From: a virus | Lineage: Duplodnaviria; Caudoviricetes | Direction: 5' to 3' (one strand) | Length of the DNA: 64,000 nt | IMG/VR virus record: IMGVR_UViG_3300021399_000158 | Location: 2,920 to 66,919 of that record | In this document: one piece after another, positions 3,361 through 33,597 of the stretch | How the letters are laid out: every line of letters starts with the position of its first letter | Numbering within the stretch: the stretch's first letter is position 1 | Notes under the pieces: model-generated | Database searches by the model: none | What the model was told of the DNA's origin: nothing | Seen by the model: the letters and a program-made list of their open reading frames with translations, nothing else | Program-made: the position numbers and the translations under genes

Positions 3361-3372
3361 AGGAGCCTAATT

Positions 3373-3645
3373 ATGGATTTTGAATCTGCTTTAAATGAAA
3401 TTAGAAAAGAGCCATCGGTTAATACTGTATGGTTCGGCTTTCAAACAAATAGACGATTTATATTTGTCGTGTCTCCTAACTCCATGTTTATTCCTAGAGA
3501 TGCCGAATCGTTTATGATTGCTATTGATAGGAATACTGGAGAAAAACAGATATCTAAGTTTATTCAAATTCCAGAAGCTGAAAATGTATTTGAACATGCA
3601 AAATACGTCGACGCAACAGCTGAAGATTTTGCAGATATGATGTGA
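3373..3645 (+). CDS. Small acidic protein, candidate immunity/antitoxin for the upstream papain-fold domain
   Basis: 90 aa, AAGGAG RBS, directly downstream of the toxin-like domain, carries no tag; function inferred from position only. Confidence 0.4.
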   Translation: MDFESALNEIRKEPSVNTVWFGFQTNRRFIFVVSPNSMFIPRDAESFMIAIDRNTGEKQISKFIQIPEAENVFEHAKYVDATAEDFADMM

Positions 3646-3654
3646 GGATTGATA

Positions 3655-4212: not shown

Positions 4213-4217
4213 TTTTT

Positions 4218-4694
4218 ATGAGCAACGAACTATACCATCATGGTGTAAAAGGAATGAAATGGGGAGTTCGAAAAGATCGCAGAGCGTCCAACGAAAGTAA
4301 ACTTGCAAGAAACACCTCATATCGAAATAAATTAGCTAGAAGGGCCGAAATAAAGTCCAAGTTAAACACCAAAGCGTATAATCAAGCAAATTCGGAGTAC
4401 AACGATCTTGCAAAGAATGGGCTTAAGAGTAACGCGTGGAATGATGAAGTTAAAAGAAGATACGAAAGCGATCTCACGAAATACGGATTTAGCAGTTGGA
4501 CTCCTGCAATTAACTCTGCAATTAATTCGATTGATAAACATGCTATGAGAACGTACATGGTGGATGTTGATATGGAACGAGAAAGATACAAGGCTGCTGC
4601 GGACAGATGGATGAATTCTAATAAGAATCTTATGAATATGCCAATTTCTAGTACCACAAAGAAGAGGGATATTCGTAGAACTTATAGAGCATAG
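4218..4694 (+). CDS. HHGVKGMKWG-tagged basic helical protein of unknown function
   Basis: MSNELYHHGVKGMKWGVRKDR N-terminus. Confidence 0.75.
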   Translation: MSNELYHHGVKGMKWGVRKDRRASNESKLARNTSYRNKLARRAEIKSKLNTKAYNQANSEYNDLAKNGLKSNAWNDEVKRRYESDLTKYGFSSWTPAINSAINSIDKHAMRTYMVDVDMERERYKAAADRWMNSNKNLMNMPISSTTKKRDIRRTYRA

Positions 4695-4703
4695 GAGGTG
4701 TTT

Positions 4704-5978: not shown

Positions 5979-5991
5979 TTCAAAATGGGAG
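5979..5991 (+). promoter_or_regulatory. TTCAAAATGGGAG motif copy 3 (contains the capsid gene ATG)
   Basis: Exact 13-mer. Confidence 0.6.
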
Positions 5992-18700: not shown

Positions 18701-19131
18701 CTAATGTCATCGATTTCGATGGCGAGAGAGCAGAGTTTATGCTGAATACCGATATCGATACGTCATGGAACAAGAACTTCCAGGAAACAAAGTATCTCGG
18801 CGGTTCTATTCAGGGCGACTGGCAGAGCGGTGTCGATAGAACTATATCTATCAACACAAACGCTCTTAGCAACGATGTCGATACTGTTGAGATGATGCAT
18901 AATCTTGCTATGTACGAAGGCGTATGCCATATTCGTACAAAAGACGGAGCCAATTATACAGGCAATGTGAACGTCAGTGAGAGTGCTCCTCATCAACCGT
19001 ATTACGATAGAGAAGGAAACTTTACAAAGCTTCTGTCATATTCATTCAACATTACAAGAATTGATAATAATTCAGAGGATCTTGATGGCATGACACTCGC
19101 AGCTTGGGAAGCAACATTAGATGATGAATAA
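15772..19131 (+). CDS. Large minor tail/baseplate protein with Fn3/Ig-like segments
   Basis: 1119 aa after TMP; VPTAPGTVTAE...VRVKWDW...WYFWVKLV Fn3-like pattern. Confidence 0.7.
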   Translation: MAKSSKPRGLKMVRNHSTITCEWKIPNKGYGDGQQFKKGIKTATGDEKTKTNWTAVKIGDKKESEKIKLDGSLSKYYPFTNTKLKAVLFKVRGNTKKYKKKKKKINPGWSIWVTKPHNICAPKKPKVENGIAQAFSATYVIDISENFTDSWSKAGNVKKDRYLDPWTTHIEYETVLRIDKNDRSIDDIPDEIWAQNRTRKEIYNPITKDNKTEFTEPIEETPDEINQINAAINEGKTAVRWFRARALGPGGPSPWGKPKIPISYNPAKPVMASDTTAVITDLESGGYHVSVDWTYQHSINNPVDYIKIQYAFSTPTGTKKAPSADANWQEAQIGGDNTITPKSTNEAGSIVTSELKGIGFDISGHAADNQFVYVRVNTYHNNRESQGVAVICTDVDGNLPSSDGVLAMPSSLNVAPGSSNRVTVSVTNNAEGDEVYLAIVWLDVEGASKTEVIGIIECEGTGQYEETVEIPPNYKADYAIGVFAFIGEVGDPVRVGTEDSGYDHYNITTVLRSKTLQRGGAVPTAPGTVTAEHLGDGNVRVKWDWDWKDANKAIIGWSDYQYAPESTTQPNTYTVTNVNTASIIIPGLAMGKTWYFWVKLVKDSTESLWSSYAYVTLNSAPNVAYVDCSDDYITLEDEFTLTWVYVTTDTTPQKGAKIAVGSYSDGTFVPENIIETIPNDDQPGTDQYHTFDPGPDGLNWEEGKEYYISVMVESESGRSSDAWAEPYKITTLVPIECNVTSTSLSPAPQVDPEDDDAPLPYPTLTQLPLQVTIEGVLEGQFATLIVERANDFFQLRPDDSEYGGYAGETIIQKTMEGSGTFEVTLEDDGLIGQLDDNAHYNIIVQATDSYGQVKRTDPIEFIVAWDHQALMPVGSVEIDQEHLAAKIHIGIPEGYDATECAGDVCDIYRHSIDGIELIYSGAAFGETYVDPYPTLGDNGGHRIVYRTRNGDYICGLETNYAWIDFFVDEGDFVNTLSNVIDFDGERAEFMLNTDIDTSWNKNFQETKYLGGSIQGDWQSGVDRTISINTNALSNDVDTVEMMHNLAMYEGVCHIRTKDGANYTGNVNVSESAPHQPYYDREGNFTKLLSYSFNITRIDNNSEDLDGMTLAAWEATLDDE

Positions 19132-19143
19132 TTTGGAGGAGCT

Positions 19144-20187
19144 ATGGATTGGTCTAAAGGTTTCACGTCCAGGTACTACGCTACGATAGTAGACCCTCGT
19201 ACTTGGCGTGATATTTTGTCTTTTGACATAACAGGGGGCTCTATCAAATTGACAGAATCTGGGCTCCGTGAGTCTGCTGATTTAGATTGCTCGACTTTGT
19301 CGATAAGATCTGGCGGAGTCGAGTATGAACAAAGTTTTAATTCTAATGAGTACTGGGTAAGGGTATATCTGGATGCCAGACAAGAGTCAGACAACCAGCT
19401 TATACCCTTATTTACAGGTCTGGCAAGTTCTCCTAACAGGAATTTCTCCGGGCCTAAGGAAACAAACAAATTGACATGCTACTCCGTTCTTAAACCGGCT
19501 GAGGATATTTTGTTGCCACTTGGTGACTACGTCCGAGCCGGTACGAACGGAGCTAAAGCTGTCAGGGATCTGCTTAAGGACGTCGTGCCTGCACCTATAT
19601 CCATCGAAGGACAATCTCCTGCTTTATCCTCCAACCTGGTCGCTGAAAGTGGGGAGACTAAGTTGTCGATGGCTGATTATATTTTGGGGGTTATCGGCTG
19701 GCGTTTAAGGATAGAAGGGGACGGTTCAATTGTTATTTGCGAAGAGGCCGACTCACCGTCGGCTGTGTTTAATTCAATAACAAATGACGTCTTAGGGTTG
19801 GAAGTTGATATTGAGAACAACTGGTATGAATGCCCGAATGTATTCAGAGTTACAAATGAGAATATGATGGCTATTGCCAGGGACGAAAACCCGGAAAGCC
19901 CGTTCTCTATACAGAATAGAGGCCGAGAGATTTGGATGGAAGAAAGCTCTGCGGATTTGAATGATGGGGAAACCCTTGGCCAGTACGCTAAACGTCGTCT
20001 AGAAGAAGCCCAAAAAGTTATGCGAAAATTGAGTTACGAGCGGCGTTTCGATCCAAGCGTACGTGTTGGGGACATGGTATGGATAACATATCCTTCACAG
20101 GGAATCGATGGAGCGTTTATAAGCCAGTCCCAAAGTATCAACTTGGCATATGGAGCAGCGGTCAGTGAGGAAGCCGTAATGGCTTAA
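19144..20187 (+). CDS. Minor tail protein (baseplate hub-like)
   Basis: 347 aa in tail operon; CPNVFRV, RGREIW, YERRFDPSVRVGD. Confidence 0.6.
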   Translation: MDWSKGFTSRYYATIVDPRTWRDILSFDITGGSIKLTESGLRESADLDCSTLSIRSGGVEYEQSFNSNEYWVRVYLDARQESDNQLIPLFTGLASSPNRNFSGPKETNKLTCYSVLKPAEDILLPLGDYVRAGTNGAKAVRDLLKDVVPAPISIEGQSPALSSNLVAESGETKLSMADYILGVIGWRLRIEGDGSIVICEEADSPSAVFNSITNDVLGLEVDIENNWYECPNVFRVTNENMMAIARDENPESPFSIQNRGREIWMEESSADLNDGETLGQYAKRRLEEAQKVMRKLSYERRFDPSVRVGDMVWITYPSQGIDGAFISQSQSINLAYGAAVSEEAVMA

Positions 20188-20199
20188 GGAGGTTATATT

Positions 20200-22659
20200 T
20201 TGAGCGTTAGATTTGACAAGACTATTAAGACTCTTGCACGGACGCTGCAAGATACCAACAAAAGAGGAACCAAACCTTACGAGACCGAAGCAACTGTCGT
20301 ACGAGTTGAAGGAGACACACTTTGGGTCCATATTGATGGAGGTGCAGATGAAACACCAGTTAAGAAAACCATTGCAGCATCCATTGGTGACACTGTCCAT
20401 ATTAAGATTGCCAATAAATCCGCTTACATTGTTGGCAATTACACCGCGCCACCAAGTGACTCAGAAGAGACACTGAAGATTGTAGAGGAGCAAATTAGTT
20501 CTGGAGCAATCAGAGGTAGAGATGGAGAGCCAGGAAAGGACGGAGCTCCTGGGCAAGACGGAGCATCTACTAAGAAGGTCGAGATTGTATATTGTCTGGC
20601 TCTTTCTGATGCGGCGGATGAAGATGGCGAACCTGAGGACATGATATCTGAAGACTGGCAGGCTGATATTCCGACGCTTGCTGATGTTCCGATAGAGGAA
20701 GGGGAAGAGACGATTGACGACCCGGAAGAAATAGCGGATATTCCCACAAATGGGTACGTGGATCTTGGGTATTATGTTTCCGAACTCAAGTCGTTTAAGG
20801 TAAACGGAACAGAATACACGGACTACACTCTCGAAACTCTTTCGGAAGAAGACGACGAAGGGGAAATGTATACCACTTCCATCGCTAGAATCAATCCCGA
20901 AACCTGGCCAAGCAGCGTCACAAACATTACATATTACTACGTAGAGGCTATTGACCCGTTGAGTATCTTCTATATCTGGATGCGCACCCTAACCTACACA
21001 ACTGACATGGAAGAGGGCGACGATCCGGAAGAAGGAGTCCCCTCAATCTACGGAACACTGACGGCAGAAGGCGGAACAGATTTCAAAGTCCGTACAATCA
21101 TTCGGGAAGAGAAATGGTTCTGCTTAGCTACTGCCGTAGCTCTGGGTCCCGGACAGAAGTTCGAGGATATTCAGAAGACTGAGTGGTCAACAACGATTCC
21201 GGATATTAAAGAGGCTAAGGACGAGTTCAGTATCGACTTATATTACTGGACTTATATCAAATATTATTACTCCGATGGCACAACAGCTGTCAGCCCGCCG
21301 TATTACGACTTCTCAGCTCAAATAGCTTACGAGGTTTCACAGGCAGAAACAAGCCAGGACAACCATTTCTGGTCGAATGCGAATGGCGCTTTCGTAGGTC
21401 ACTACGAGAACGACCCCGACAGAGACCACGTGGTTAAAGTAGTAGGAGAGGGCGTTCTGCTGTATAAAGATGGCGAACGTATGGCTTCGTTTACTGATTC
21501 CGGCGTTGCTTTCAGAGGCAAAGTTGGAGGCACTTGGACTGAATTAGCTAGGTATACGAATCTTGGCATTAGCTTTGCGCAAAATGTCGACTACACTATT
21601 GGCGACCCATCTGGTCAGTATATCAAGTGGGATTCCGCAAACAAGCGAATTGTTATTTGCGCTCAATCGCTTGTATATGGCTCGAATAATGTTGACTTGG
21701 CTACCGAATTAGATAGCGTTAAAACAAAGGCTAATACAGCTGATACGAATGCTAGTCAGGCTAAGAGCACTGCTAGTACTGCGAATACTAATGCTACTAG
21801 TGCATATAATAAAGCCGTTGCCGCTCAGAATGCTGCCGACAAAGCTAACAATCTTATTTATATGAGCGGTAGTGGATTATATGTCGTGAATAGTAGCGAC
21901 ACGAGCCAGAAAATTTTAATCGATTCGTACGGGATGAATGTGTACTATAGTGGCACATCAGTGGCACAATTCGGTGCGTCAACAAGAATAGGCTATAATA
22001 ATTCTTGGCATATATCGTTAGATAACACGAAACTTTCTTTTTATAATTCTTCTGGAAGTAGTATCGGATATATCGGTACTTGGCAGGATACTGAGGAGTA
22101 TCTTAGCGGTATTCAGATATCTTCGGCGCTCCCAGCGCTTTTTCTTACCTCGAATAAAGTTAAGATATTTTGTGGTTCAGATGATAACGCGTTTGTTGTT
22201 CGATGTAATAACAAAAAAATGATAGAGTATAACTATTCCTCCAGCGCACCGTATAACAGACTTCGTTTCCCGGAAGCATACCACACTGGTTCAGCTTCCG
22301 GCAAACAAGCTTACATTAATGAATATGGTTGGCTGAATGCTTCAAGTTCTAAAAGAGAAATTAAGACTGATATAACAAGCGAGTTTAATAGCGAAAATAA
22401 TCCACGTAATCTATACAATGTGCCGGTTCGTCAGTTTAAGTATAAAGAAGGTTATATCGATCCTGACGACTATAATTATGGAAAAGATGTCGTTGGAATA
22501 ATAGCCGAGGAAATTGATGAAGCTTATCCGGTTGGCGCTTATCATGAAATGGACGGTACACCTGGGGATTGGGATATTCGTACTGTTGTCCCCGCCATGC
22601 TCAAACTTATCCAGGAGCAGCATGAGGAAATCGAAGCTATTAAAGCACAACTCAATTAG
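20200..22659 (+). CDS. Tail fibre/spike with C-terminal intramolecular chaperone (peptidase S74-like)
   Basis: Short collagen-like GRDGEPGKDGAPGQDG, alanine-rich coiled coil, C-terminal SSKREIKTDI...VRQFKYK...GIIAEEIDEAYP...LIQEQHEEIEAIK; TTG start after GGAGG. Confidence 0.8.
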   Translation: MSVRFDKTIKTLARTLQDTNKRGTKPYETEATVVRVEGDTLWVHIDGGADETPVKKTIAASIGDTVHIKIANKSAYIVGNYTAPPSDSEETLKIVEEQISSGAIRGRDGEPGKDGAPGQDGASTKKVEIVYCLALSDAADEDGEPEDMISEDWQADIPTLADVPIEEGEETIDDPEEIADIPTNGYVDLGYYVSELKSFKVNGTEYTDYTLETLSEEDDEGEMYTTSIARINPETWPSSVTNITYYYVEAIDPLSIFYIWMRTLTYTTDMEEGDDPEEGVPSIYGTLTAEGGTDFKVRTIIREEKWFCLATAVALGPGQKFEDIQKTEWSTTIPDIKEAKDEFSIDLYYWTYIKYYYSDGTTAVSPPYYDFSAQIAYEVSQAETSQDNHFWSNANGAFVGHYENDPDRDHVVKVVGEGVLLYKDGERMASFTDSGVAFRGKVGGTWTELARYTNLGISFAQNVDYTIGDPSGQYIKWDSANKRIVICAQSLVYGSNNVDLATELDSVKTKANTADTNASQAKSTASTANTNATSAYNKAVAAQNAADKANNLIYMSGSGLYVVNSSDTSQKILIDSYGMNVYYSGTSVAQFGASTRIGYNNSWHISLDNTKLSFYNSSGSSIGYIGTWQDTEEYLSGIQISSALPALFLTSNKVKIFCGSDDNAFVVRCNNKKMIEYNYSSSAPYNRLRFPEAYHTGSASGKQAYINEYGWLNASSSKREIKTDITSEFNSENNPRNLYNVPVRQFKYKEGYIDPDDYNYGKDVVGIIAEEIDEAYPVGAYHEMDGTPGDWDIRTVVPAMLKLIQEQHEEIEAIKAQLN

Positions 22660-22674
22660 AAAGGAGCTAATCTA

Positions 22675-22893
22675 ATGTACATAGTATACGAAATACAAGG
22701 GACCGGCGATAGCGTATCCACCCTTACGTATGATTACAAAAATAAGAATGAAGCAGAAAGCAAATACCATTCGGTTCTTTCGGATGCTGCGGTCAGTTCC
22801 GTTCCAATTCATACTGCGATACTTATGACCGACAAAGGGACTAGCTTAGATAAACAGTATTACGAACACCCAGTAGAGGAGGCAGCAGAATGA
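22675..22893 (+). CDS. Small tail-associated hypothetical protein
   Basis: 72 aa, GAAAGGAG RBS. Confidence 0.6.
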   Translation: MYIVYEIQGTGDSVSTLTYDYKNKNEAESKYHSVLSDAAVSSVPIHTAILMTDKGTSLDKQYYEHPVEEAAE

Positions 22894-23051
22894 TCAACAA
22901 AATCATAGCAGCAAACAACGAGCTGCAGCAGGTCTACGTCCGTGGCATTGACGCAGTCCATATGGCTAAGGCTCTTATGGCAATCGAAGAAGTTTATAAC
23001 GAACTCCTCGAGCAGGAGACAGCAAAAGTATCTGAGGAAAATCAGGATTGA
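22890..23051 (+). CDS. 53-aa helical hypothetical protein (absent from ORF track)
   Basis: ATGA overlap with previous gene, GGAGG RBS; MINKIIAANNELQQVYVRGIDAVHMAKALM... Confidence 0.55.
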   Translation: MINKIIAANNELQQVYVRGIDAVHMAKALMAIEEVYNELLEQETAKVSEENQD

Positions 23052-23117
23052 AATCCGAAAAATTCCCCGGGTGAGATTTTCTGAAAACAATTCTATATTC
23101 TGAAAAGGAGCTAAGTC

Positions 23118-23645
23118 ATGTCTACGCTACATTTCGACAAACAAGGCAGTTTCTCGACCGCTGTAGACCTAACGATGGTGTTAAACGAATCGGTCAACAA
23201 CTTGGTTCCTATAGCTCAAAAGGTCGGATACGAATTCGATGGTTGGTTCTGCACTTACACCTCTGGTGGTCACGTTGAGGAGAAAGTCGTACGAGTTTAC
23301 AGCAGCGACAAACCTATGTGGGAAGCCAAAGACCGGCAGGTAATCGTTTACGAGGACAATACATGGTGGGAAGCCGAGTATATTCCTCAATCAGACACTC
23401 CTGTAGTTGTCGAGGATATTAAGGTATTCGATTCGAAGGGCAGGGCAGTAAAATCTGACGTATTCTGGACAGATGACTACCCTAATGGTGTCTATAAGAA
23501 TCGTAAGAACATCACAGTATATCCTGTATGGCACGAGGTTCCATTCGTCAATGAATATTTCGACCAGGAAAATGAGAAATGCCACTTATATGCAGAAGTT
23601 GATGGCGTAATGACAAGAGTAGAAGTCTTTAGAGGAGGTAGCTAA
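23118..23645 (+). CDS. Protein with a split InlB B-repeat (Listeria-Bacteroides repeat)-like domain
   Basis: KVGYEFDGWF...SGG and DVFWTDD...NITVYPVW halves of the repeat. Confidence 0.5.
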   Translation: MSTLHFDKQGSFSTAVDLTMVLNESVNNLVPIAQKVGYEFDGWFCTYTSGGHVEEKVVRVYSSDKPMWEAKDRQVIVYEDNTWWEAEYIPQSDTPVVVEDIKVFDSKGRAVKSDVFWTDDYPNGVYKNRKNITVYPVWHEVPFVNEYFDQENEKCHLYAEVDGVMTRVEVFRGGS

Positions 23646-23905
23646 TGGGAGTTAATAAGATCACCTATGGTAACGAAACTCTGATAGACCTTACTAATGA
23701 CACTGTTACCGCTGATACGCTGGTGAACGGCAAGACAGCTCACAACGCCAATGGTGATATTGTTGAGGGTACTCTTGTTCCGGTCGACTTGTCAAAGGAT
23801 ACTGTCACAGCTTCTACGTTATCACAGGGTATCACCGCCCATGATAAGGATGGCACCCCGATAACTGGTACTTTAGTACCGGTCGTAGATGCAGTATGGG
23901 GGTGA
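23645..23905 (+). CDS. Small tail-fibre-associated repeat protein
   Basis: Two internal repeats DLTNDTVTADTLVNGKTAHNANG / DLSKDTVTASTLSQGITAHDKDG. Confidence 0.6.
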   Translation: MGVNKITYGNETLIDLTNDTVTADTLVNGKTAHNANGDIVEGTLVPVDLSKDTVTASTLSQGITAHDKDGTPITGTLVPVVDAVWG

Positions 23906-23909
23906 TATT

Positions 23910-25283
23910 TTGAGTTTAACAGCGAGCGAGTTTATTGCTCTAAAAACAAAAGTAAAGAATGAAATGGCGAGGAGGAAGTACTATGGCTCACTTGAGACAT
24001 TTGCTTCCTCTTCTTACGATTTCCAGACTACGCCTGTCCAAGGACAGCGTATATTAGCCGAACAAGGTCAGAAAGTTATTGACCTGGCACTCAAGATCGC
24101 AGATGTCGATGGTTACGCATTAGTAGAGCAGGGTGATAAGCTGCCTGATTCAATGACGGCTCTGTCGAACAAGCTCGATCAGTGGGCTAATGAGTCTTTG
24201 ACCGGCTCTAGCTCCTGCAGGGGAGCATGCACAGGCTTATGCACTACCGCGTGCTCCGGAGCTTGTAAGAATGGATGCAAGGGCTGCCAGGGATGCGGAT
24301 CAGCATGCCAGGGCGGATGCGGTAGTAACTGCACGAGTTCGTGCTCCGCACAATGTACGACTGGATGCGGAACTAACTGCTCAAGCTCGTGTGCTACTAG
24401 CTGCGGCGGTTGTGGCAATTCTTGCGGCACTGCTTGCACCAGTGGCTGTACCGGATGTCAGGGGTGCTCATCATGTGCTGGATCTTGTAAGGACGGATGT
24501 AACGATTCGTGCTCCGGAAACTGCGGAACTGGGTGCACCGGTTCTTGTCATGATGCATGCACTTCAAACTGCAAATCCGATTGCGCTGGGGGATGCAATA
24601 CCACATGCTCAAGCGGTTGTAAAAGCGGCAGTTGCAAGAATGGATGTATCGGTTGCGACACTTATTGCAAGGACGCTTGCGCAGGATGCCATACCACATG
24701 CACTGGTGTGTGCAGTAAAGGCGGTTGCAAATCGGTATGCAAAGGTAGTGAATGCAAGGGCGGATGCTCCGGGCATTGCAAAGGAAACTGTACTGGCGAT
24801 TGTTATGGTTGCTGTAGTAACAACTGCGCTGGTAAATGTGAAGGCGGCTGCAATGGCTGCTCTACGGACTGTGGCGGGGGATGTAAGGCGACTTGCTCTA
24901 CAAGCTGTGGAAAATGCGACGGTCGCTGTTCCAAAACTTGCGGGGCTTCGTGCGGGAATTGCACAAGAACTTGCACCGCTACTTGCGGAGGCAGTTGCTC
25001 AGATACGTGTGGATCTAACTGTACAGGAAACTGTCGTTCTGGATGCTCGGGCTGTCAAGGATGTCAAGGATGTGGCGGAACTTGCGGAAGTGTTTGTAGA
25101 GACGCTTGTACAGCGAATTGCTCTGCTGCGTGCCGAACCGGATGTGACAGCTCATGCACTGGCTGCAGCACGCAATGCTCAAACACTTGTCTGACAACAT
25201 GCTCAAACACATGCTCAACAGGCTGCAGTGGCGGGTGCTTTGGTTCGTGCTCCGGCGGAGCCATGGCGCTTAAGAAGAAATAG
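23910..25283 (+). CDS. Giant Cys-rich CXXX-repeat protein, putative radical SAM target
   Basis: About 100-aa Cys-free N-terminal domain, then about 91 Cys (hand count) in CxxxC/CxxC periodicity with G/S/T fill; TTG start at 23910 after GGGGGTGA. Confidence 0.85.
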   Translation: MSLTASEFIALKTKVKNEMARRKYYGSLETFASSSYDFQTTPVQGQRILAEQGQKVIDLALKIADVDGYALVEQGDKLPDSMTALSNKLDQWANESLTGSSSCRGACTGLCTTACSGACKNGCKGCQGCGSACQGGCGSNCTSSCSAQCTTGCGTNCSSSCATSCGGCGNSCGTACTSGCTGCQGCSSCAGSCKDGCNDSCSGNCGTGCTGSCHDACTSNCKSDCAGGCNTTCSSGCKSGSCKNGCIGCDTYCKDACAGCHTTCTGVCSKGGCKSVCKGSECKGGCSGHCKGNCTGDCYGCCSNNCAGKCEGGCNGCSTDCGGGCKATCSTSCGKCDGRCSKTCGASCGNCTRTCTATCGGSCSDTCGSNCTGNCRSGCSGCQGCQGCGGTCGSVCRDACTANCSAACRTGCDSSCTGCSTQCSNTCLTTCSNTCSTGCSGGCFGSCSGGAMALKKK

Positions 25284-25298
25284 AAAGGAGATCAATCA

Positions 25299-25625
25299 AT
25301 GGAGAAGTTTACATTTGATTTAACAGAAGAGCAGATCACATATTTGCAGAGACTTGGAAACGAAGTCGACACTAAAGTTTTTCTCATCGATAGAATGATG
25401 GCAAATCATGCAACTGATACAGATCTCAGTCTGTTTGAATCCAAGCCTTTTAAACATTTCATGAGCGAGTATGAGAAATCTTATGCTATGTGGGAAATGG
25501 CTAAAAGCGAATTCGAGAAAACTGTGGTTAATCCGATCGTGGCCGAGAAGTATGGTCCGAATGCGTTATATTCGTGGATGATCAACGACTTCGAAGAAGG
25601 TACATGCGAGGTGACGATTCAGTGA
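25299..25625 (+). CDS. CXXX-repeat modification system accessory protein (putative)
   Basis: 108 aa between target and rSAM; LTEEQ N-terminus and WMINDFEEGTCEV end resemble, from memory, the small CXXX-system associated family; not searched. Confidence 0.5.
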   Translation: MEKFTFDLTEEQITYLQRLGNEVDTKVFLIDRMMANHATDTDLSLFESKPFKHFMSEYEKSYAMWEMAKSEFEKTVVNPIVAEKYGPNALYSWMINDFEEGTCEVTIQ

Positions 25626-26941
25626 AGCGCAGCAAGAAAAGTTCTGAGCAGTATCAGGACATGGTAGCGCGTTTATATCCCGAATTAAAAGGAAAAGACA
25701 ACTTCCCATGTATGGAAATCACATTCCAGGTCACTGACGCTTGTTCTCTTGCCTGCACATACTGTTATCAGATCGATAAGGGGCATAAGGTTATGCCTTT
25801 CGAGACAGCAAAGACCTTTATCGACAATCTCTTCGATGGTTTTTACAAAGGTTACGTTTCCGAAGAGGAGAAACCTTTCCTCGTTCTCGATTTCATTGGC
25901 GGTGAACCATTTCTTCAGCCTAAGTTGATCGAACAGATCTGCGACTATTTCTTTGATACGGCGATTGAACGCATGTCGCCGTGGGCAGAGCGTACAATGA
26001 TATCTGTATGCTCAAACGGAGTGGCATGGTTCGATCCTGACGTCCAGCATTTTGTTAACAAATACCGCGAACGGTTGTCTATATCGGTAACGATTGACGG
26101 CAACAAGGAACTTCACGACTCCTGCAGGATATTTCCTGATGGTAGACCCAGCTATGATCTGGCTGTAGCAGCGGCTAAAGACTGGATGGATCGTGGCGGG
26201 GAGATGGGCAGCAAGATTACTATCTGTCCTGAAAACCTTCGATATATGAACGACGCCATCCTTCATATGATCGAACTCGGTTACGACGAGATCAACGCGA
26301 ATGTCGTTTATGAAGAAGGATGGACGATCGAGCACGCTAAGGAATACTACCAGAAACTCAAGGAGATTGCCAATCACTTCATTGACAACGATTTGGTCAG
26401 TGATATTTACCTTTCGTTGTTCACAGAGATTTTGGGGTATCCAAAACCAGAGGATGATGACAAAACCTGGTGCGGTGGAGTAGGGAACGCCATGCTCTCT
26501 ATCGATCCGGATGGTAAGTTCTTCCCTTGTATTCGCTACATGCATTCCTCACTTGGCGACGACCAGCCGCCTCTGTCGATCGGAGATGTATGGACAGGTA
26601 TCGGCAAGAATGAGGAAGACGCAGCATGGATCAAATGCCTCGGATGTATCACAAGACGATCAGAGAGTACGGACGAGTGCTTCTATTGCCCGATCGCAGA
26701 AGGGTGCTCCGAATGCTCCGCATACAACTACCAGGTCAATGGCACACCTGATTCGCGATGCACATTCATTTGCGACATGCACAAAGCCAGAGTCATGGCT
26801 AACTCATATTTCTGGAACAAGTGGTATCGCAAGACCTGTCAGGACAAGCGATTCGCGCTGCATATTCCGGATGACTGGGCTTTGGAAATTATTGATGAGA
26901 AAGAACTTGAGATGCTTAAAGAATTATCTAAGGAGAATTAA
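25622..26941 (+). CDS. Radical SAM/SPASM peptide maturase
   Basis: CxxxCxxC (CSLACTYC), FIGGEP, and SPASM Cys set WCGG...FPC...CFYC...CSEC...C; GTG start overlapping previous TGA. Confidence 0.92.
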   Translation: MKRSKKSSEQYQDMVARLYPELKGKDNFPCMEITFQVTDACSLACTYCYQIDKGHKVMPFETAKTFIDNLFDGFYKGYVSEEEKPFLVLDFIGGEPFLQPKLIEQICDYFFDTAIERMSPWAERTMISVCSNGVAWFDPDVQHFVNKYRERLSISVTIDGNKELHDSCRIFPDGRPSYDLAVAAAKDWMDRGGEMGSKITICPENLRYMNDAILHMIELGYDEINANVVYEEGWTIEHAKEYYQKLKEIANHFIDNDLVSDIYLSLFTEILGYPKPEDDDKTWCGGVGNAMLSIDPDGKFFPCIRYMHSSLGDDQPPLSIGDVWTGIGKNEEDAAWIKCLGCITRRSESTDECFYCPIAEGCSECSAYNYQVNGTPDSRCTFICDMHKARVMANSYFWNKWYRKTCQDKRFALHIPDDWALEIIDEKELEMLKELSKEN

Positions 26942-26945
26942 ATAA

Positions 26946-29900
26946 ATGTCTAAAGAAGTAAGAATGCTTAATGAGATCAGCAAAGCTTTGGGCGGTGCTG
27001 AGCACGTACAGAGAAAAGATATTCTGGAAGAGATTGCAGGGCTGTCCGACTCCTTAGGTCCGGAGCAGCATATTCTGCCTCCCAGTCAGGTTGATCCGGA
27101 AACAGGTTTGCCTACGGTAGAAGACCCGGAAGAAGGCGCGTTTTATCTGGTCCCCTCAGGTGAGGAGGAGCCGAATCTTTATAACGAGTATATTTGGACC
27201 GGCGACGGTTGGGAGCTGTTTGGGTCTGGTGGTGGCGGTAAAGTTGATACAGATCGCGTCGTTGAAATAACTACGGAAGATTTTATCGACAGCGCTGACG
27301 AAAATGGGAACATTAAAGAGTTAGATGTTTTGGCGACCGCGATTAGAAGAAAATGGTCTAACAATACTCTGGGGGTCACCGCTGATGGCATTTATTGTAT
27401 TTTGTCGCCAACGAGTCGCGTTATTGAGCCTCTTAAAATAAGAATGCTTGATAGTAGTAACGTAAGACGCGATTTATTAGATTCCTCCGCTCAAGAAACT
27501 ATCTTAGCCTTTGTATACGTATACTTTATGGGGCAATATGTTACAGCCCCTATGGGAGTAGCATGGACTCGGGTGTTCGATATTTATTCGTCAGCGATAT
27601 TCAGCGGTGTTAATAGAGACTACGACACTAGCAAATATTCAAGTTATATAATTAATTGGGAGTACGAATCAAGAAACTATAAGGTATTACCAATTGTTTG
27701 CAATGGAACGGCGGACGTGCGTTTGGTTGGCAAACTTAAAAACATTGACGATCGAGGAACTGGGGTTGTTGAGGGGAACATTGTGTCAAACGCCGCTTCT
27801 GGAGAATACGCCCATGCTGAAGGCAATAATACAAAAGCTTCAGGTGATGATTCCCACGCGGAAGGGATTGACGTGAAAGCTTCTGGCAATTACTCTCACG
27901 CTGAAGGTGGTCTCACAACCGCTTCTAGTGATTATTCCCACGCGGAAGGCAATCAATCAACTGCTTCTGGTAGTTGCTCTCATGCAGAAGGAACTGCCAC
28001 GATTGCTTATGGTCGTTTATCTCATGCAGAAGGAAATAGCACAAAAGCATACGGCGAAGCTTCTCATGCTGAGGGTTATGGCGGAGTAACTGGAGAGGAT
28101 GGCAATAGTGGAACCGGGTTTTATGCTCACGCAGAAGGCTACCAGACAACAGCTTCCGCTAACCGCTCTCACGCAGAAGGATATAAAACAATCGCTTCTA
28201 GCGATAGTTCCCATTCAGAAGGTTATCAGACAACCGCTTCTGGAGCATACGCCCATGCTGAAGGCAATAATACAAGAGCTTCTCGTGATAGTTCTCATTC
28301 AGAAGGATACAACACAACCGCATCGGGCAAATACTCTCACGCAGAAGGTAACGATGCGACCGCATCTGGCGAAAGCTCTCACGCAGAAGGGGGCGCAACC
28401 GCATCGGGCAAATACTCTCACGCAGAAGGTAACGATGCGACCGCTTCCGGAATTAATTCTCACGCAGAAGGATATAACACAAAAGCCCAAGGCGATTATT
28501 CTCACGCAGAAGGTAACAATGCAACCGCATCGGGCAAATACTCTCACGCAGAAGGATGGGGGAAAACATACGGCGAAGCTTCTCACGCCGAAGGTTTGGG
28601 GGTAACAGGAGTTTCTGACAATCCTGATAAAGGCGGATATTCTCATGCAGAAGGATATACCACAAAAGCCCAAGGCAACTATTCTCACGCGGAAGGAAGG
28701 GAAACAAAGGCGATTGGCGAGGAATCTCATGCAGAAGGTGGTCTCACAACCGCTTCTGGTCTACGTTCCCATTCGGAAGGATTTAGTACAACCGCTTCTG
28801 GTGATTATTCTCACGCAGAAGGCGACCAATCAACGGCTTCTGGTGATGATTCCCACGCTGAAGGACGGGGCACGAACGCTTCTGGCATTCAGTCTCACGC
28901 GGAAGGCGCAAAAGTAAGTGATACCGATATACAATATAAAGGAGAAACAACTACATTAGCTCCTGCAGTAGCAGCAGGCGCCCATTCGCATATTGAAGGC
29001 CAGGACACGAGAACCGAAACGACAGCGTCAAATGCGCACGCTGAGGGGTATCGTACATATGCTAAAAATGCTAATGCTCACGCAGAAGGTTCTACCACAA
29101 CAGCTTCTGGCGAAAGTTCCCATGCGGAAGGCTTCTTTACAAAAGCTTCTGGCGATAGTTCCCATGCGGAAGGCGTTACCACAACAGCTTCTGGCAATAA
29201 TTCTCACGCAGAAGGTAGCTCTACAGAAGCCTCTGGTGCAAAGTCTCATGCTGAAGGGTTTGGGACAATTGCTTCTGGCGAAGATTCTCATGCCGAGGGA
29301 CATGCTCCTCGAGCTTCTGGCGATAGTTCCCATGCGGAAGGTAGCAGCACGACAGCTTCTGGATATAATTCGCATGCGGAAGGTAACCATACAATCGCTA
29401 ACCACAAATCCCAGCATGTTCATGGCGAATACAATATTTCCGACCCTTCAACGGCTGAGGCCACAGAACGTGGCAATTATGTTGAAATCGTCGGTAATGG
29501 TACAGCAGACAACGCTCGTTCCAACGCCCGTACACTTGACTGGTCAGGTAATGAACGGCTGGCTGGTAAGCTGACTGTCGGGGCTGATCCTACAGAGGAT
29601 ATGGATGTTGCGACTAAGCAGTATGTGGATGAGAATGCTGGCGGGGGCGGGCAGTTACCTCTTATTAAGGTTACTCCGCATTACGGTCCAACATCATATT
29701 ATGAAATCGATTGGACTTATGAACAACTAACAGATTATTTTAGTTCGCTCGACGATCCTACTTTTATTAGTTGCCTTGTGTGGGTTACAGCTGGACCAGA
29801 AAACTATTCGATCGGGGAAATTTTAAGAAATGTAAATATGTCTGATAATACTACTACATTTGTTATCCGATATATTGAAGGCGCTACTATGTTGTGGCCG

Positions 29901-30200
29901 CTAAAGACTGGCATAGACCAACTTACAATACATGAAGACGGATCTATTGTAAAAGACGGATATAGCGCAAAAAAAACAATAACATTAACTGCTTCTGCTT
30001 GGTCCTCAAACACCCAGACAGTATCAGTAGCAGGCGTAAAAGCCACCAATACAGTCCTCGTAACCCCAGCTCCAGCAAGTGTAAAAGACTGGGATGCAGC
30101 GTATGTTATCTGCACAGCGCAGGGCGCAAACTCACTCACCTTCACATGCGACACAGTCCCGGAGAATGATATTTCCGTTAATGTAGTAATTCTCGGCTAA
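26946..30200 (+). CDS. Tail fibre with YadA/Hia head-like (SHAEG) beta-roll repeats
   Basis: 36 H[AS I]EG repeats of about 14 aa (hand count), neck motif YVEIVGNG...RSNARTLDWSGN...DVATKQYVDE. Confidence 0.8.
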   Translation: MSKEVRMLNEISKALGGAEHVQRKDILEEIAGLSDSLGPEQHILPPSQVDPETGLPTVEDPEEGAFYLVPSGEEEPNLYNEYIWTGDGWELFGSGGGGKVDTDRVVEITTEDFIDSADENGNIKELDVLATAIRRKWSNNTLGVTADGIYCILSPTSRVIEPLKIRMLDSSNVRRDLLDSSAQETILAFVYVYFMGQYVTAPMGVAWTRVFDIYSSAIFSGVNRDYDTSKYSSYIINWEYESRNYKVLPIVCNGTADVRLVGKLKNIDDRGTGVVEGNIVSNAASGEYAHAEGNNTKASGDDSHAEGIDVKASGNYSHAEGGLTTASSDYSHAEGNQSTASGSCSHAEGTATIAYGRLSHAEGNSTKAYGEASHAEGYGGVTGEDGNSGTGFYAHAEGYQTTASANRSHAEGYKTIASSDSSHSEGYQTTASGAYAHAEGNNTRASRDSSHSEGYNTTASGKYSHAEGNDATASGESSHAEGGATASGKYSHAEGNDATASGINSHAEGYNTKAQGDYSHAEGNNATASGKYSHAEGWGKTYGEASHAEGLGVTGVSDNPDKGGYSHAEGYTTKAQGNYSHAEGRETKAIGEESHAEGGLTTASGLRSHSEGFSTTASGDYSHAEGDQSTASGDDSHAEGRGTNASGIQSHAEGAKVSDTDIQYKGETTTLAPAVAAGAHSHIEGQDTRTETTASNAHAEGYRTYAKNANAHAEGSTTTASGESSHAEGFFTKASGDSSHAEGVTTTASGNNSHAEGSSTEASGAKSHAEGFGTIASGEDSHAEGHAPRASGDSSHAEGSSTTASGYNSHAEGNHTIANHKSQHVHGEYNISDPSTAEATERGNYVEIVGNGTADNARSNARTLDWSGNERLAGKLTVGADPTEDMDVATKQYVDENAGGGGQLPLIKVTPHYGPTSYYEIDWTYEQLTDYFSSLDDPTFISCLVWVTAGPENYSIGEILRNVNMSDNTTTFVIRYIEGATMLWPLKTGIDQLTIHEDGSIVKDGYSAKKTITLTASAWSSNTQTVSVAGVKATNTVLVTPAPASVKDWDAAYVICTAQGANSLTFTCDTVPENDISVNVVILG
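27790..29420 (+). repeat. Imperfect 42-bp coding tandem repeats
   Basis: Recurrent tctcacgcagaagg units; near-identical blocks starting about 28317 and 28397. Confidence 0.85.
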
Positions 30201-30212
30201 AGGAGGCTCATT

Positions 30213-30977
30213 ATGATTCTTAATATGCATAGAAGGCCTCCGGTGAAAGACCCTATGAGTTGGGCGTATGCTTCTGACGAGCAGATCGTCGCTATGGTCG
30301 AGGCTGCCGATAGAGGTGAGATTGACCTGGCCGATTATTGGAATGTTGGGGATGAACGCGTTGTGCATTTATCTGCTATGACAGCAACAGGCGATATGGA
30401 AACACACGCGGAACAAGACGTTGTTTTTGTACTTATGCATTCTGGCGGAAAAACTCTTAATAAAGCTGTAGCATCAGGTAGAACGGAATGTTCGTTTATT
30501 GTTGGACAAAAGGATTCTCTTAACGAAAGAGGCTATATGAATTCATCGAATACAAATTCTGGAGGATGGGAGGCTAGCGCAAGAAGAGGTTGGTGCAACA
30601 ATATATATTATAATTCAATTCCATCTTCAATTAGGAGTATTTTCAAGCAAGTTAAAAATAAGACAGCTGGAGGAGGCCGCAGTACAACCAGTGCTATCGA
30701 ATCCGTTGATTATTTTGCATTACCTGCTGAGTATGAAATATGTGGATCGTATAGCTACTCAAGTACTCAGTACGAGAATGAATTGTTCCAGTTTGATTAT
30801 TATAAAACAAAATCTAACAGGTCGAAAAAGGTTGATGATTCGGCGACCGTTTGGTGGTCTAGATCTCCAGACCATTCTGGTGCTTCTTCTTTTGTTTCTA
30901 TAACAGCTGGCGGCATGGCTAGTAATATGACTTCTACTAGGAATAGCTGCGGCATCTCTCCCTTTGGTTGCATCTAA
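30213..30977 (+). CDS. DUF6273-like / C-type lectin-fold receptor-binding-type protein
   Basis: LADYWNVGDER, GYMNSSNTNSGGWEAS, C-terminal WWSRSP...F...G......GISPFGCI pattern. Confidence 0.55.
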   Translation: MILNMHRRPPVKDPMSWAYASDEQIVAMVEAADRGEIDLADYWNVGDERVVHLSAMTATGDMETHAEQDVVFVLMHSGGKTLNKAVASGRTECSFIVGQKDSLNERGYMNSSNTNSGGWEASARRGWCNNIYYNSIPSSIRSIFKQVKNKTAGGGRSTTSAIESVDYFALPAEYEICGSYSYSSTQYENELFQFDYYKTKSNRSKKVDDSATVWWSRSPDHSGASSFVSITAGGMASNMTSTRNSCGISPFGCI

Positions 30978-30997
30978 GATAAAGGAGGTCCTAAAAA

Positions 30998-31351
30998 TTG
31001 AAATACTTAATCCAACACAAAAAAGAATTCGCTATATCAGTGGCCGCCTTTATCATGGCGGTCATTAATCTTTATAAGGCAATCAGATCCCATGATATTT
31101 CTGAGGATCTGATCGTGGCTGTTCTGGTCACTGCTACAACGGTCCTGGCATGGTATTACAACATGCCAACTTCCGAAGAGAACACCAAGCATACAGGTCT
31201 TATGAGGCTGGAAAAGGCTTCTAAGAAAGACGGTTATATCGGAGAGAACTTCTTCGATGATATGGATGATGAGGAAGAGGACGATGACTTCTTTGAGCAG
31301 TGTGAGGAGCAGCCCGAGGATGCTAACGACAAGGAAGTGATCGACGAATGA
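30998..31351 (+). CDS. Holin-like membrane protein
   Basis: Two hydrophobic segments and an acidic tail, immediately upstream of endolysin; TTG start. Confidence 0.55.
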   Translation: MKYLIQHKKEFAISVAAFIMAVINLYKAIRSHDISEDLIVAVLVTATTVLAWYYNMPTSEENTKHTGLMRLEKASKKDGYIGENFFDDMDDEEEDDDFFEQCEEQPEDANDKEVIDE

Positions 31352-32388
31352 GTTACAAGACATATAAACAGTACGACAGCCGGTGGGGGAGTAAGAACTA
31401 TAACGGCTCCTCCACCATGGCTGCAGCCGGATGCGGTCCGACAGCCTGTGCTACGATCATTTCCAACCACGATCCGAGAGTCACTCCTCTGAAAACAATG
31501 AAATACATGCAGGAGCACGGCTATGCTATACGCAATAACGGTACAGCATGGGCTGGCATTCCTGCCTGTATGAAGTGGGGCGGACTGAATGAGGTCAAAG
31601 AGATCAAGACAATGCCTGATCTCTGGTCCTATATGAAAAAGAAACACTCCTGCGGAATCATCCGATTTGAAGCTGGAACGGTTGGCGGGGTCACATGGAC
31701 AACAGCTGGCCACTTTGTAGCCTTTACTGCTATGAAGATCAAAGACGGCAAGCATTATCTCTGGACTCGTGATCCTGGCGGCAGAAACCACGATGGATGG
31801 TATTGCTACGAAACTCAGATGATCGGACTCGTAGGAAACGTTTGGGTCGGCATATCCAATCCGCCTAAGACAAAGCGGGAAAAGAAGCTTGAGCGTATCG
31901 AGGAAGTTGCGATCAAATGCTCATGGCCTAAGGGTACCACAAGGAGCAAGATGGGATATCCTGAGGGTCACGCTAAGAAAGCGTACAAGCAGGCCCTGAA
32001 CAAGGCATATCCTAACAGATCCGGCTGGCGCGATCAGACACACGACGGAGCATCCTGCGATGTGGCGGTTGGAACATTTGTACGTGCATCCGGAGTAGAC
32101 AAGCGGTTCCCACGGGGCTGCGATGATATTCCGGATTACATGGAGTCTAAGCACGGCAAAGAGAAGTGGATGAATCTTAAGACTCATAAGATGAAAAAGA
32201 TCCCTGACGGTGCAATTATATTTCAGATCTATGACTCTGGAGCTAAGCACGTCATGGTTAAAGTAAGAGGCAGATTTGTTGCCAATGCACACTACTGCAA
32301 AAAGACATTCCCTGTTATTGAGAGCTATAAGAAGATCGTAAAGAGTAAGTCCGCCTGCAGAGTATTTAAGGTTTATGTACCTAGATAG
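31348..32388 (+). CDS. Endolysin: peptidase C39-like domain plus second CHAP/NlpC-like domain
   Basis: YKQYDSRW...GCGPTACA...GHFVAF; second Cys/His pair ASCDVAVG...KHVMV. Confidence 0.75.
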   Translation: MSYKTYKQYDSRWGSKNYNGSSTMAAAGCGPTACATIISNHDPRVTPLKTMKYMQEHGYAIRNNGTAWAGIPACMKWGGLNEVKEIKTMPDLWSYMKKKHSCGIIRFEAGTVGGVTWTTAGHFVAFTAMKIKDGKHYLWTRDPGGRNHDGWYCYETQMIGLVGNVWVGISNPPKTKREKKLERIEEVAIKCSWPKGTTRSKMGYPEGHAKKAYKQALNKAYPNRSGWRDQTHDGASCDVAVGTFVRASGVDKRFPRGCDDIPDYMESKHGKEKWMNLKTHKMKKIPDGAIIFQIYDSGAKHVMVKVRGRFVANAHYCKKTFPVIESYKKIVKSKSACRVFKVYVPR

Positions 32389-32396
32389 GAGGTATT

Positions 32397-32708
32397 ATGG
32401 GACTTCAGGACACACTTATAGTAGCTGTTATCGGGGTGTTCGCGGCGGCATTTGGCGGTAGCGGATTCTGGACATGGCTCAGCACCATTTCTCGCAAGAT
32501 GACGCCGTTCGAACGACTTACCATGGCATACGCACGTGACCGGCTTAACTATCTGTCCAAACGGCACATCCACAACGGTTATATTCCAGACGACGAGTAC
32601 GAGTCTTTTAAAGAAATGGGAGAAGCGTACATCGACGCCAAGGGTAACAGCCGTGTAAAGAAGTTGTTTGAGGACGCTATGAAACTGCCGGTCAAGTATG
32701 ATGATTAG
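32397..32708 (+). CDS. Single-TM holin-like protein
   Basis: N-terminal TM (LIVAVIGVFAAAFGGSGFWTW), then RLNYLSKRHIHNGYI...Y...KGN; follows endolysin. Confidence 0.55.
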   Translation: MGLQDTLIVAVIGVFAAAFGGSGFWTWLSTISRKMTPFERLTMAYARDRLNYLSKRHIHNGYIPDDEYESFKEMGEAYIDAKGNSRVKKLFEDAMKLPVKYDD

Positions 32709-32758
32709 TTATATTCTTAAAAGCTTTTAAAAAGGCTAAGAAGAAAGAGAGGAATTTT

Positions 32759-33316
32759 ATGAGTACTGTTTATTTTGAAGGAAACGTCGAAACGCAAGAA
32801 CAGTCCGGTGTATATGGTTCAGGTATTCTTAAGGAATTTGACACCTTCGAAAGCGAAAAATTATCTATAACTTTTAATGGCACAAAGTATGCTTTGGATG
32901 GCAAAGCCTACGGAAGCGGCACATATAAATCATATATGTATGGGGGAGCCGGAGAAACTGGTCCGTCATTCGACAATTATCCGTTCGTTTGTGTATTTGG
33001 TTTGAATTCGAATAGTAAATTTAATTTATATTTATACACTTCAGAACCAGGAACACATTCCCTGAAAATCGAAAGCTACGAAGAAGGATCCGATACCGAA
33101 CCGTCAACCTATGAACCGACCCTCCGAGTAAAAGATGCAATGACTCATTATGTCAGCACACTTGACGGTGTCGACGAGCCAGCTGCAACGATCAAGAAGC
33201 TCACCAAGCAGGTCCTGGATCCGGATGGTAATAACGAGGCTATCCAGAAAGCGAGAACTATCGCTCAGATCTGGGAGCAGGCTGCGATTGAGAGAGGGTA
33301 TACTCCGGACAACTAA
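32759..33316 (+). CDS. Hypothetical protein
   Basis: 185-aa ORF with GAGAGGA RBS. Confidence 0.6.
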   Translation: MSTVYFEGNVETQEQSGVYGSGILKEFDTFESEKLSITFNGTKYALDGKAYGSGTYKSYMYGGAGETGPSFDNYPFVCVFGLNSNSKFNLYLYTSEPGTHSLKIESYEEGSDTEPSTYEPTLRVKDAMTHYVSTLDGVDEPAATIKKLTKQVLDPDGNNEAIQKARTIAQIWEQAAIERGYTPDN

Positions 33317-33370
33317 ACCCATATATTCCCTTTAAAGTAGAAATTATCCTTTAAATCAACTCCAGGTTGT

Positions 33371-33475
33371 GCTATACTGTCGACGAGGTATTCTGCCTCC
33401 AATCGTAACAAATACCGAATCTCTATCCTCCGATGCTAGATAAACGTTTCTCTTTAATCTCGTCGGCAGTATAGT
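33371..33475 (+). ncRNA. Structured intergenic RNA candidate
   Basis: 17-bp closing stem 33371-33387/33459-33475 with two G-U pairs on + strand; inner GGTATT/AATACC stem. Confidence 0.5.
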
Positions 33476-33597
33476 ATTTTTCAGGAGTTCTATAAGACCC
33501 CTCTTATTTTGGGCTGATTCAACTCTTCCCAAAATTATGATTCAGGGTAAAATAGAGCTCCAACCCCCTTGATAGGGGAGAAAGGAGTTGTTTTGCC

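Follow-up and report, generated by a model that had tools for sequence, protein, structure and literature searches.

A phage-borne radical SAM/SPASM gene cluster with a cysteine-ladder target and its possible role in the maturation of a fibre-like protein

The target, the helper and the maturase

The DNA analyzed in this work is a window of 64 kb out of the 66.9-kb virus record IMGVR_UViG_3300021399_000158 of IMG/VR, which CheckV rates as complete and whose probable source sample is an animal gut metagenome. An earlier note on this window had pointed to a three-gene cluster at positions 23910-26941, in which a cysteine-rich target protein is followed by an accessory protein (hereinafter, helper) and by a radical S-adenosylmethionine (rSAM)/SPASM enzyme. 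The analysis confirmed this cluster, since the three open reading frames (ORFs) are all present, lie on the + strand and are translationally coupled (coordinates in Table 1). The large ORFs of the window are likewise all on the + strand, and PHROG and family scans gave a gene set that reads as that of a siphovirus, with a large terminase, portal, protease/capsid, major tail protein and a 1684-amino acid (aa) tape measure, continuing with distal tail proteins, fibre-like genes and then a holin-like protein and a 346-aa ORF. As the earlier note had stated, no promoter or terminator sets the cluster apart from its neighbours: such sites are no commoner at 19000-33500 than in shuffled sequence. 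The placement of the cluster as a phage-borne system within the late operon of a complete siphophage is supported by these data.

The target ORF is open from 23889 to 25283, with an ATG at 23889 and a TTG at 23910. The latter, that is, the start assigned previously, is most likely the correct one, because its ribosome-binding site (RBS; GGGGGTGA) is the better one and runs over the stop of the 86-aa ORF located upstream, and because of the starts of the homologues, whose residue 2 aligns opposite residues 9-10 of the target query. The helper gene begins 15 nucleotides (nt) past the target stop and has the RBS AAAGGAG. The rSAM ORF is open from 25574; its likeliest start is the GTG at 25622, which overlaps the helper stop (GTGA) and lies behind GAGGTGA, leaving 338 nt between the end of the target and the start of the enzyme, and its stop is 4 nt before the next ATG. 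A 307-aa ORF in another frame of the target (24271-25194) was rejected as a gene, being an Ala/Val-rich shadow of the GC-rich Cys/Gly codons.

The target is a 457-aa protein and contains exactly 91 cysteines, in agreement with the approximate count given earlier, all of them falling within residues 110-454 (ATG numbering). In this cysteine ladder, 70 of the 90 distances between consecutive cysteines are equal to 4 (the CXXX spacing), 16 are equal to 3, three to 5 and one to 1, and the Cys density of the core is 26%. The residues lying between the cysteines are mainly G, S, T, A and N, with Gly dominating the second position and being frequent at every x position, and acidic residues are scarce (12 D and 2 E in the ladder). 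The DNA of the target is almost free of tandem repeats, unlike the gene for the 1084-aa protein downstream, and thus the Cys period is kept at the protein level. The TIGR04114 repeat matches in the target reach 20.7 bits combined, marginally over the cut-off of 20. The ladder opens with C-x3-C-x-G-L-C; a ladder start of the form C-x3-C-x-G-x-C was found in all 78 repeat-bearing family members, the stricter C-x3-C-x-G-L-C being present in 66 of them, and the motif also occurs in the bacterial target with a twin-arginine translocation (Tat) signal that is discussed below. This C-x3-C-x-G-L-C start is a candidate recognition or nucleation site. As to the length of the ladder, 91 cysteines exceed those of any of the 78 repeat-bearing representatives analyzed (maximum 68), and a longer ladder was found solely in a related locus (L005).

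The ladder is preceded by a globular domain (N-domain), for which the AlphaFold2 (AF2) model predicts a small helical fold (predicted score in the local distance difference test, pLDDT, 84.7; predicted template modelling score, pTM, 0.77). The N-domain has no Pfam or NCBIfam match; in the PDB nothing convincing was retrieved, with Foldseek E≥4.6 and a best VIA Z of 5.4 to CH-domain or Lon-N-like helical bundles, a value which is not meaningful, and the BFVD matches are exclusively family members from uncultured phages. A phmmer search against 1.84 billion representatives retrieved 177 clusters at E<1e-3, and 80 of the 89 matches of at least 130 aa run on into CXX(X)C repeats, the others looking truncated or frame-shifted. 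The N-domain defines a family, made up of at least 177 clusters, of helical domains not described so far. Its members range from ~170 to 557 aa and from 20 to 113 Cys, the median one having 22 Cys in ~195 aa. The target has no signal peptide and no twin-arginine signal, and no tat-like ORF was found in the translated region at 18-34 kb, the remainder of the window not having been searched; similarly, no protease or exporter is present in the cluster or among the annotated ORFs scanned in the wider window.

The search of the NCBIfam/TIGRFAM families that the earlier note had proposed assigns the enzyme to TIGR04115, the CXXX-repeat maturases, with 449.7 bits against a cut-off of 350 and a match covering positions 3-359 of the 359 of the model (450.3 bits in the genome search). 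The next best families, each scoring under its own cut-off, are PapB (154 bits), the SCIFF maturase (98.8 bits) and QhpD (87.4 bits); since the PapB family (NF047865) has a cut-off of 340 bits, the enzyme is a relative and not a member of it. The CX3CX2C motif lies at aa 41-48 and the SPASM Cys cluster at aa 284-384 (Cys 284, 303, 339, 342, 353, 356, 362, 365, 380 and 384). Because the CX3CX2C motif occurs so early, there is no room for a fused N-terminal recognition element (RRE) of the kind found in maturases of peptides that are made on ribosomes and modified after translation (RiPPs). The best solved relative is CteB (5WGG, E 1.5e-14), and the rSAM proteins of Erwinia and Salmonella jumbo phages are only ~25% identical to the enzyme. 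No separate gene for a second maturase of the TIGR04119 type was found, the lone match (20.6 bits, cut-off 150) falling inside the SPASM region of the rSAM enzyme itself.

For the helper, AF2 predicts with high scores (pLDDT 94.3) the order strand, long helix, long helix, two strands, which differs from that of the canonical, PqqD-like RRE, a winged helix-turn-helix with three strands and then three helices. Structural comparisons of the model gave generic helical hairpins only (best Foldseek E 0.26, VIA Z≤7.1), a search of the ESM Atlas gave viral hypothetical clusters only, at 0.86, and the 14 helper homologues have no Pfam domain on record. A profile built on the helper shows that most related loci have a counterpart of it, placed between target and rSAM, and in a myovirus relative (L008/P0043) an in-frame fusion joins the helper to the target's end. 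As to the possible kinship with TIGR04116, the window helper does not match this family at E≤10, nor in the genome search, and hhalign against one TIGR04116 member gave a probability of 1.4%; the helper of another related locus (L023) has a weak full-length match (E 0.014), and the phage-type helpers and TIGR04116 are alike in size, position and a C-terminal W-x-I-D-F-like hairpin.

The comparison with known systems places the cluster beside the CXXX-repeat system of TIGRFAMs, which was defined bioinformatically and comprises TIGR04115, the targets TIGR04114/04117/04118, TIGR04116 and TIGR04119 ("CXXX_matur"). The two share a full-score TIGR04115 enzyme, the CXXX repeat, the C-x3-C-x-G-L-C start and a ~100-aa helper adjoining the enzyme. 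In the bacterial form, exemplified by locus L002, a 174-aa target carries a Tat signal and is accompanied by TatA, TatC and the second maturase TIGR04119, whereas in the phage form a folded domain of ~100 aa replaces the signal peptide, the TIGR04119 gene is absent, the helper has no TIGR04116 score, the genes are located in the tail module and the ladder is far longer (91 Cys in the window). Judging from the sequences, the window system is a distinct phage variant of the TIGR04115 system, a variant marked also by the divergence of its helper and by the link to a fibre-tip module described below for the relatives. Locus L002 (MT837480.1, 6.8 kb) is itself filed as "Bacteriophage sp."; it has TIGR04115, TIGR04119, TIGR04116, TatA, TatC and the Tat-signal target, contains no phage gene and is probably a bacterial (Bacteroidota-like) fragment in a phage collection.

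The closest characterized rSAM/SPASM enzymes are the ranthipeptide maturase PapB (freyrasin) and CteB (SCIFF), which make Cys thioether macrocycles in Cys-rich substrates. The enzyme of the window is far under the cut-offs of the two families (340 and 425 bits); their substrates are short peptides that carry leaders and motifs of the Cys-X3-Asp type, whereas the ladder has few acidic residues, and CteB possesses an N-terminal RRE, which the window enzyme does not. Systems in which SPASM rSAM enzymes install thioethers in proteins rather than in peptides, as would be the case here, are QhpD, which cross-links a protein subunit, the gamma subunit of quinohemoprotein amine dehydrogenase (PMC11002830), and CrpC of Methanococcus voltae, from the neighbouring SPASM family TIGR04463, which introduces ranthionine links at Cys-x-x-X motifs in the large Cys-rich CrpA, helped by the N-terminal domain of the latter (Dieter et al. 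2026, PMC13692751). CrpA resembles the target in having an N-terminal domain that aids processing, followed by a repetitive Cys-rich region; unlike the CXXX ladder, its repeats consist of 17 residues with C-X-X-Q/D. CrpC and QhpD, moreover, come from families other than that of the window enzyme, which scores 55 and 87 bits on them, respectively, and they are cellular, not viral, with no fibre context.

Conserved position, fibre tips and exchangeable heads

The earlier note had proposed a survey of synteny, taking the occurrence of homologous clusters at random genomic positions as the mark of passenger DNA. What emerged is a conserved position: the target/helper/rSAM trio recurs in ~30 loci from IMG/VR and from Clostridia prophages, in both sipho- and myoviruses, and across the 30 related loci the PHROGs matched by the two genes upstream are mostly those of tail fibres, tails, baseplates or virion structure, and the two downstream match endolysin, amidase or holin. 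Relatives were also collected from GTDB by rSAM alignment, giving 25 loci with enzymes 36-65% identical; they belong to Lachnospiraceae and other Clostridia, plus one metagenome-assembled genome (MAG) labelled Treponemataceae, and nearly all have an N-domain/CXXX target. Cultivable lysogens with a relative include Neglectibacter timonensis SN17 (locus L019) and Vallitalea maricola AN17-2 (L023). In two loci (L004 and L006) the order is Dit, Sipho_Gp37, a fibre of 650 or 799 aa, target, helper, rSAM and, further on, holin, and the same gene order is found in MT835573.1, an unannotated human faecal phage record. Because in another locus (L011) the protein upstream of the target has a BppU_N domain, the target there lies in the slot of a receptor-binding protein; in the myovirus L008 it follows a tail-collar-fibre N-terminal stub in a baseplate operon. 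In three loci (L028, L030 and L033) the targets are permuted, with the ladder first, the globular domain at the C-terminus and the gene placed after the enzyme. For this reason, the globular domain is not simply an N-terminal leader.

Some of these loci show peculiar arrangements. In L005, the closest relative by its enzyme (76% rSAM identity), the stretch at 2231-5335 encodes two targets in tandem, one of 434 aa with 87 Cys and the other of 557 aa with 113, and the helper is preceded there by an additional ORF of 94 aa. The rSAM relative of L033 (6753-10178) is an ORF of 1141 aa, ~700 aa longer than usual, where the excess could be an intein or a fused domain. In six MAG contigs from GTDB (L010, L014, L015, L017, L018 and L020) the N-domain and the CXXX repeats of the target are found in two separate ORFs with different frames, as the result either of assembly frameshifts in a low-complexity region or of real frameshifting.

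The genes lying just upstream of the targets share a further feature. In at least 15 loci, the ORF preceding the target ends in the module ...AP.NT..LWIDT..GG..KYYNG..W....VWG followed by the stop codon, and its carriers vary from ~85-aa mini-ORFs to a ~200-aa tail-collar-fibre stub (in a myovirus), a BppU_N baseplate protein and fibres of 650-800 aa. The tip motif alone was then scanned over IMG/VR as a degenerate DNA pattern, which gave 80 matches. The motif lies at the very C-terminus in 67 of them (three of which are out-of-frame), and in 53 of these 67 the next gene is an N-domain/CXXX target, usually within 5-125 nt; if only matches with 3 kb or more of DNA downstream are counted, the target directly follows the tip in 33 cases out of 42. 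Of the 13 motifs that lie inside a longer protein, none has a target. In four jumbo-phage contigs of IMG/VR (L092, L096, L112 and L141; 159-196 kb), fibres end in a WIDT..KYYNG tip (..PVCWGD or ..PVCWSE) and no CXXX target lies downstream; the tip module thus exists also without the modification genes.

Variation at the other end of the target was also observed. In the L004-like lineage, three endings are seen after the conserved junction ..QAQAFGAVV..VDLIANG: the target has nothing more, or it carries a head of ~183 aa that comes in several variants, or else a head of ~128 aa unrelated to the former, and heads only 30-62% identical are found on bodies 81-98% identical. At the sequence level, such mosaicism is the pattern of receptor-binding proteins. 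Moreover, the target P0002 embeds a CBM_4_9-like (carbohydrate-binding module) insert matching phage adsorption and tail families. The window target has no distal head.

These arrangements recall the lactococcal baseplates of TP901-1 and Tuc2009 (BppU with BppL/BppA) and the fibre-plus-Tfa cassettes, where a C-terminal end holds the product of the next gene and the distal parts are mosaic. The likeness lies in the BppU_N protein upstream of the L011 target and in the mosaic distal parts, the contact between tip and target being in our case a proposed one. Unlike BppL or BppA, to which no structural similarity of the target was found, the docked protein would here consist of a helical domain and a cysteine ladder needing enzymatic maturation.

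A possible fibre maturation system and its alternatives

On the whole, we suggest, with a probability of roughly 0.55, that the phage uses the cluster, as a late gene system of its own, to mature a fibre-like protein of the virion, a thioether-stapled rod docked on the tail. According to this idea, the TIGR04115 enzyme and the 108-aa helper would modify the cysteines of the target in the infected cell, the helper standing in for the RRE that the enzyme lacks and presenting the substrate. The most likely fate of each thiol would be a thioether link with a residue close by, of the ranthionine or sactionine type, as done by PapB, CteB, QhpD and CrpC; thioether formation would be expected of the enzyme, given that the nearest characterized families are all thioether formers, and it would involve many of the 91 cysteines, perhaps all or most of them. 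Since the ladder has few Asp/Glu and much Gly, the acceptor and the type of link cannot be read from the sequence. The stapled glycine/serine-rich chain would behave as a stiff, non-reducible rod, which the globular domain would dock on the tail (in the relatives, onto the conserved module at the C-terminal tip of the fibre or baseplate protein encoded just before it) and which in some relatives would carry a swappable distal head.

The earlier note had left two products side by side, a structural or receptor-binding virion protein and a giant RiPP-like one. The comparative evidence, that is, the coupling to the tip, the swappable heads and the CBM-like insert, favours a fibre-like product; the strongest of these signals, the WIDT..VWG tip, is not significant in the window itself. 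Indeed, a search of the six frames of the window for the tip module retrieved only the terminal VDAVWG of the 86-aa ORF (E 7.4). Other data, too, weigh against a stapled virion fibre. Many of the 53 loci in which a target follows the tip are near-identical phages, ~20 of 28 distinct tips being coupled, and the association could derive in part from the shared ancestry of a mobile cassette and not from contact. The N-domain gave no tblastn match in 50,697 phage records, so that no cultured phage with this domain was found, and no long fibre protein with a fused N-domain was detected among the 1.84 billion representatives, the longest match listed being 543 aa. Asp and Glu, which typically serve as acceptors for PapB or QhpD, make up few of the ladder residues. 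In the literature, we found no experiment on any TIGR04115 system and no paper on the system in phages. Lastly, chaperones and cargo genes, too, are found in the slot that separates fibre genes from lysis genes.

This last point bears on the alternative that survives best, even though we consider it unlikely, namely that the modified target is no part of the virion but a giant product of RiPP-like or effector type, either released at lysis or working intracellularly, for instance as a polymer for adhesion or matrix formation, as an agent against competitors or as a metal scavenger, with the globular domain being only a leader-like handle for the maturation enzymes. A pre-lysis slot can indeed house cargo genes, a folded N-terminal handle joined to a core rich in Cys is reminiscent of CrpA, the N-terminal domain of which favours its processing by CrpC, the relatives in bacteria are products exported through Tat (L002, with its Tat signal, TatA and TatC), and the fusion of target and helper in L008 would also fit. 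However, neither the cluster nor its relatives include a leader protease or an exporter, and a leader-like handle is difficult to reconcile with the C-terminal location of the globular domain in the permuted L028, L030 and L033; furthermore, exchangeable distal heads and an insert resembling a CBM are what adsorption proteins typically show, and the target is tightly coupled to the C-terminal module of a fibre.

The same coupling might be explained by a Tfa-like assembly factor of the fibre tip, in which case the target would aid the folding or trimerization of the preceding fibre and be absent, or sub-stoichiometric, in the particle. The gene right after a fibre gene is classically that of its chaperone, and here the fibre tip and the downstream gene travel as a cassette. 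We regard this possibility as improbable, because it leaves unexplained the 20-113 cysteines with their dedicated rSAM enzyme and helper, the variation in length from ~170 to 557 aa and the distal heads that diversify as receptor-binding proteins do. An equally small probability was assigned to a metallothionein-like ladder binding metals or iron-sulfur clusters, with the rSAM enzyme catalyzing some other reaction, e.g., an anSME-type Cys oxidation or a cluster-dependent chemistry. In its Cys density (26%) the core resembles metal-binding proteins, many of the Cys-rich proteins of archaea are metal binders, the Crp genes show a response to pyrite, and the anSME families are distant matches of the enzyme (54 bits); against this, the closest characterized enzymes are all thioether formers scoring 2-3 times above anSME, no metal-handling gene lies nearby and the context is fibre-like. 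That the cluster is passenger DNA without a role in the phage is very improbable, since nothing specific favours it apart from the lack of a full tip module in the window version, and against it stand three uninterrupted ORFs with translational coupling, a Cys period upheld in the absence of repeats in the DNA and a synteny conserved in sipho- and myoviruses.

Turning back to the stapled fibre, if this reading were true, the thioethers would represent a non-reducible substitute for disulfides in an anoxic habitat, and might explain the rigidity of a fibre in the reducing gut. The target would be the first structural component of a virus particle to be matured by a radical SAM enzyme, implying a new kind of virus assembly step, and TIGR04115, at present an orphan family, would acquire its first function. 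Radical SAM thioether chemistry is so far known for small antimicrobial peptides and two or three cellular proteins; to our knowledge, a fully stapled target would be the most densely cross-linked ribosomal protein described. Only tentatively can the idea be extended to phages of anaerobic gut Clostridia bearing a modular tail appendage, its shaft with tens of thioethers (~90 in the phage of the window), a WIDT..KYYNG..VWG socket and exchangeable receptor-binding heads. The docking domain and the tip module suggest a plug-in fibre system, which would bear on the host range of abundant uncultured Lachnospiraceae phages. In addition, the enzyme may be of interest for peptide and protein stapling, as its action seems to extend over dozens of short, nearly identical motifs in one chain.

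Neighbouring genes and other observations

The genes flanking the cluster (Table 1) had all been described as tail-fibre genes. Taken together they are fibre-like, but can be named less firmly than that description implied: the 819-aa and the 1084-aa proteins are fibre-like, the 86-aa ORF, without functional annotation, is not demonstrably a gene of this kind, and the protein encoded at 30213 belongs to DUF6273. The sole family matches of the 86-aa ORF are to PHROGs whose function is unknown, its stop falls within the RBS of the target and its position is held in three relatives (L015, L022 and L024) by ~85-aa mini-ORFs with a full tip module; its product may be a small adaptor with a degenerate fibre-tip end.

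Table 1. Features of the cluster and of the surrounding region of the window.
Feature	Position	Strand	Description
819-aa fibre-like protein	20200..22659	+	Collagen-like G-x-y triplets; weak C-terminal match to the Peptidase_S74 chaperone
86-aa ORF	23645..23905	+	Two copies of a ~35-aa repeat; ends in ...VVDAVWG
Target, N-terminal domain	23910..24215	+	~100 aa, globular; four helices in the AF2 model
Target, CXXX cysteine ladder	24216..25250	+	345 aa, 91 Cys; followed by a short non-Cys tail to the stop at 25283
Helper (accessory protein)	25299..25625	+	108 aa; strand, two long helices and C-terminal beta-hairpin in the AF2 model
Radical SAM/SPASM maturase	25622..26941	+	439 aa; TIGR04115
CX3CX2C motif of the maturase	25742-25765	+	
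SPASM Cys cluster of the maturase	26471-26773	+	
1084-aa fibre/adhesin-like protein	26946..30200	+	~14-aa SHAEG-type repeats resembling the YadA head
DUF6273 protein	30213-30977	+	Family match
Holin-like protein	30998-31351	+	Marks the end of the tail module

The 1084-aa protein, whose gene directly follows that of the rSAM enzyme, looks like an adhesin-like phage fibre with repeats of the YadA-head/trimeric autotransporter type. It matches Ata/EmaA in NCBIfam, YadA_head in Pfam and phrog_25468 (389 bits), and DNA tandem repeats of 42/84 nt in its gene encode dozens of the ~14-aa units.

Outside this region, the 346-aa ORF that comes after the holin-like gene (31348-32388) occupies the endolysin position and has no PHROG match. 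Lastly, a 655-aa ORF (5985-7952) matches phrog_3270, "head maturation protease", over its full length (711.8 bits) and gives also a weak match to a major head protein family, possibly representing a protease-capsid fusion.

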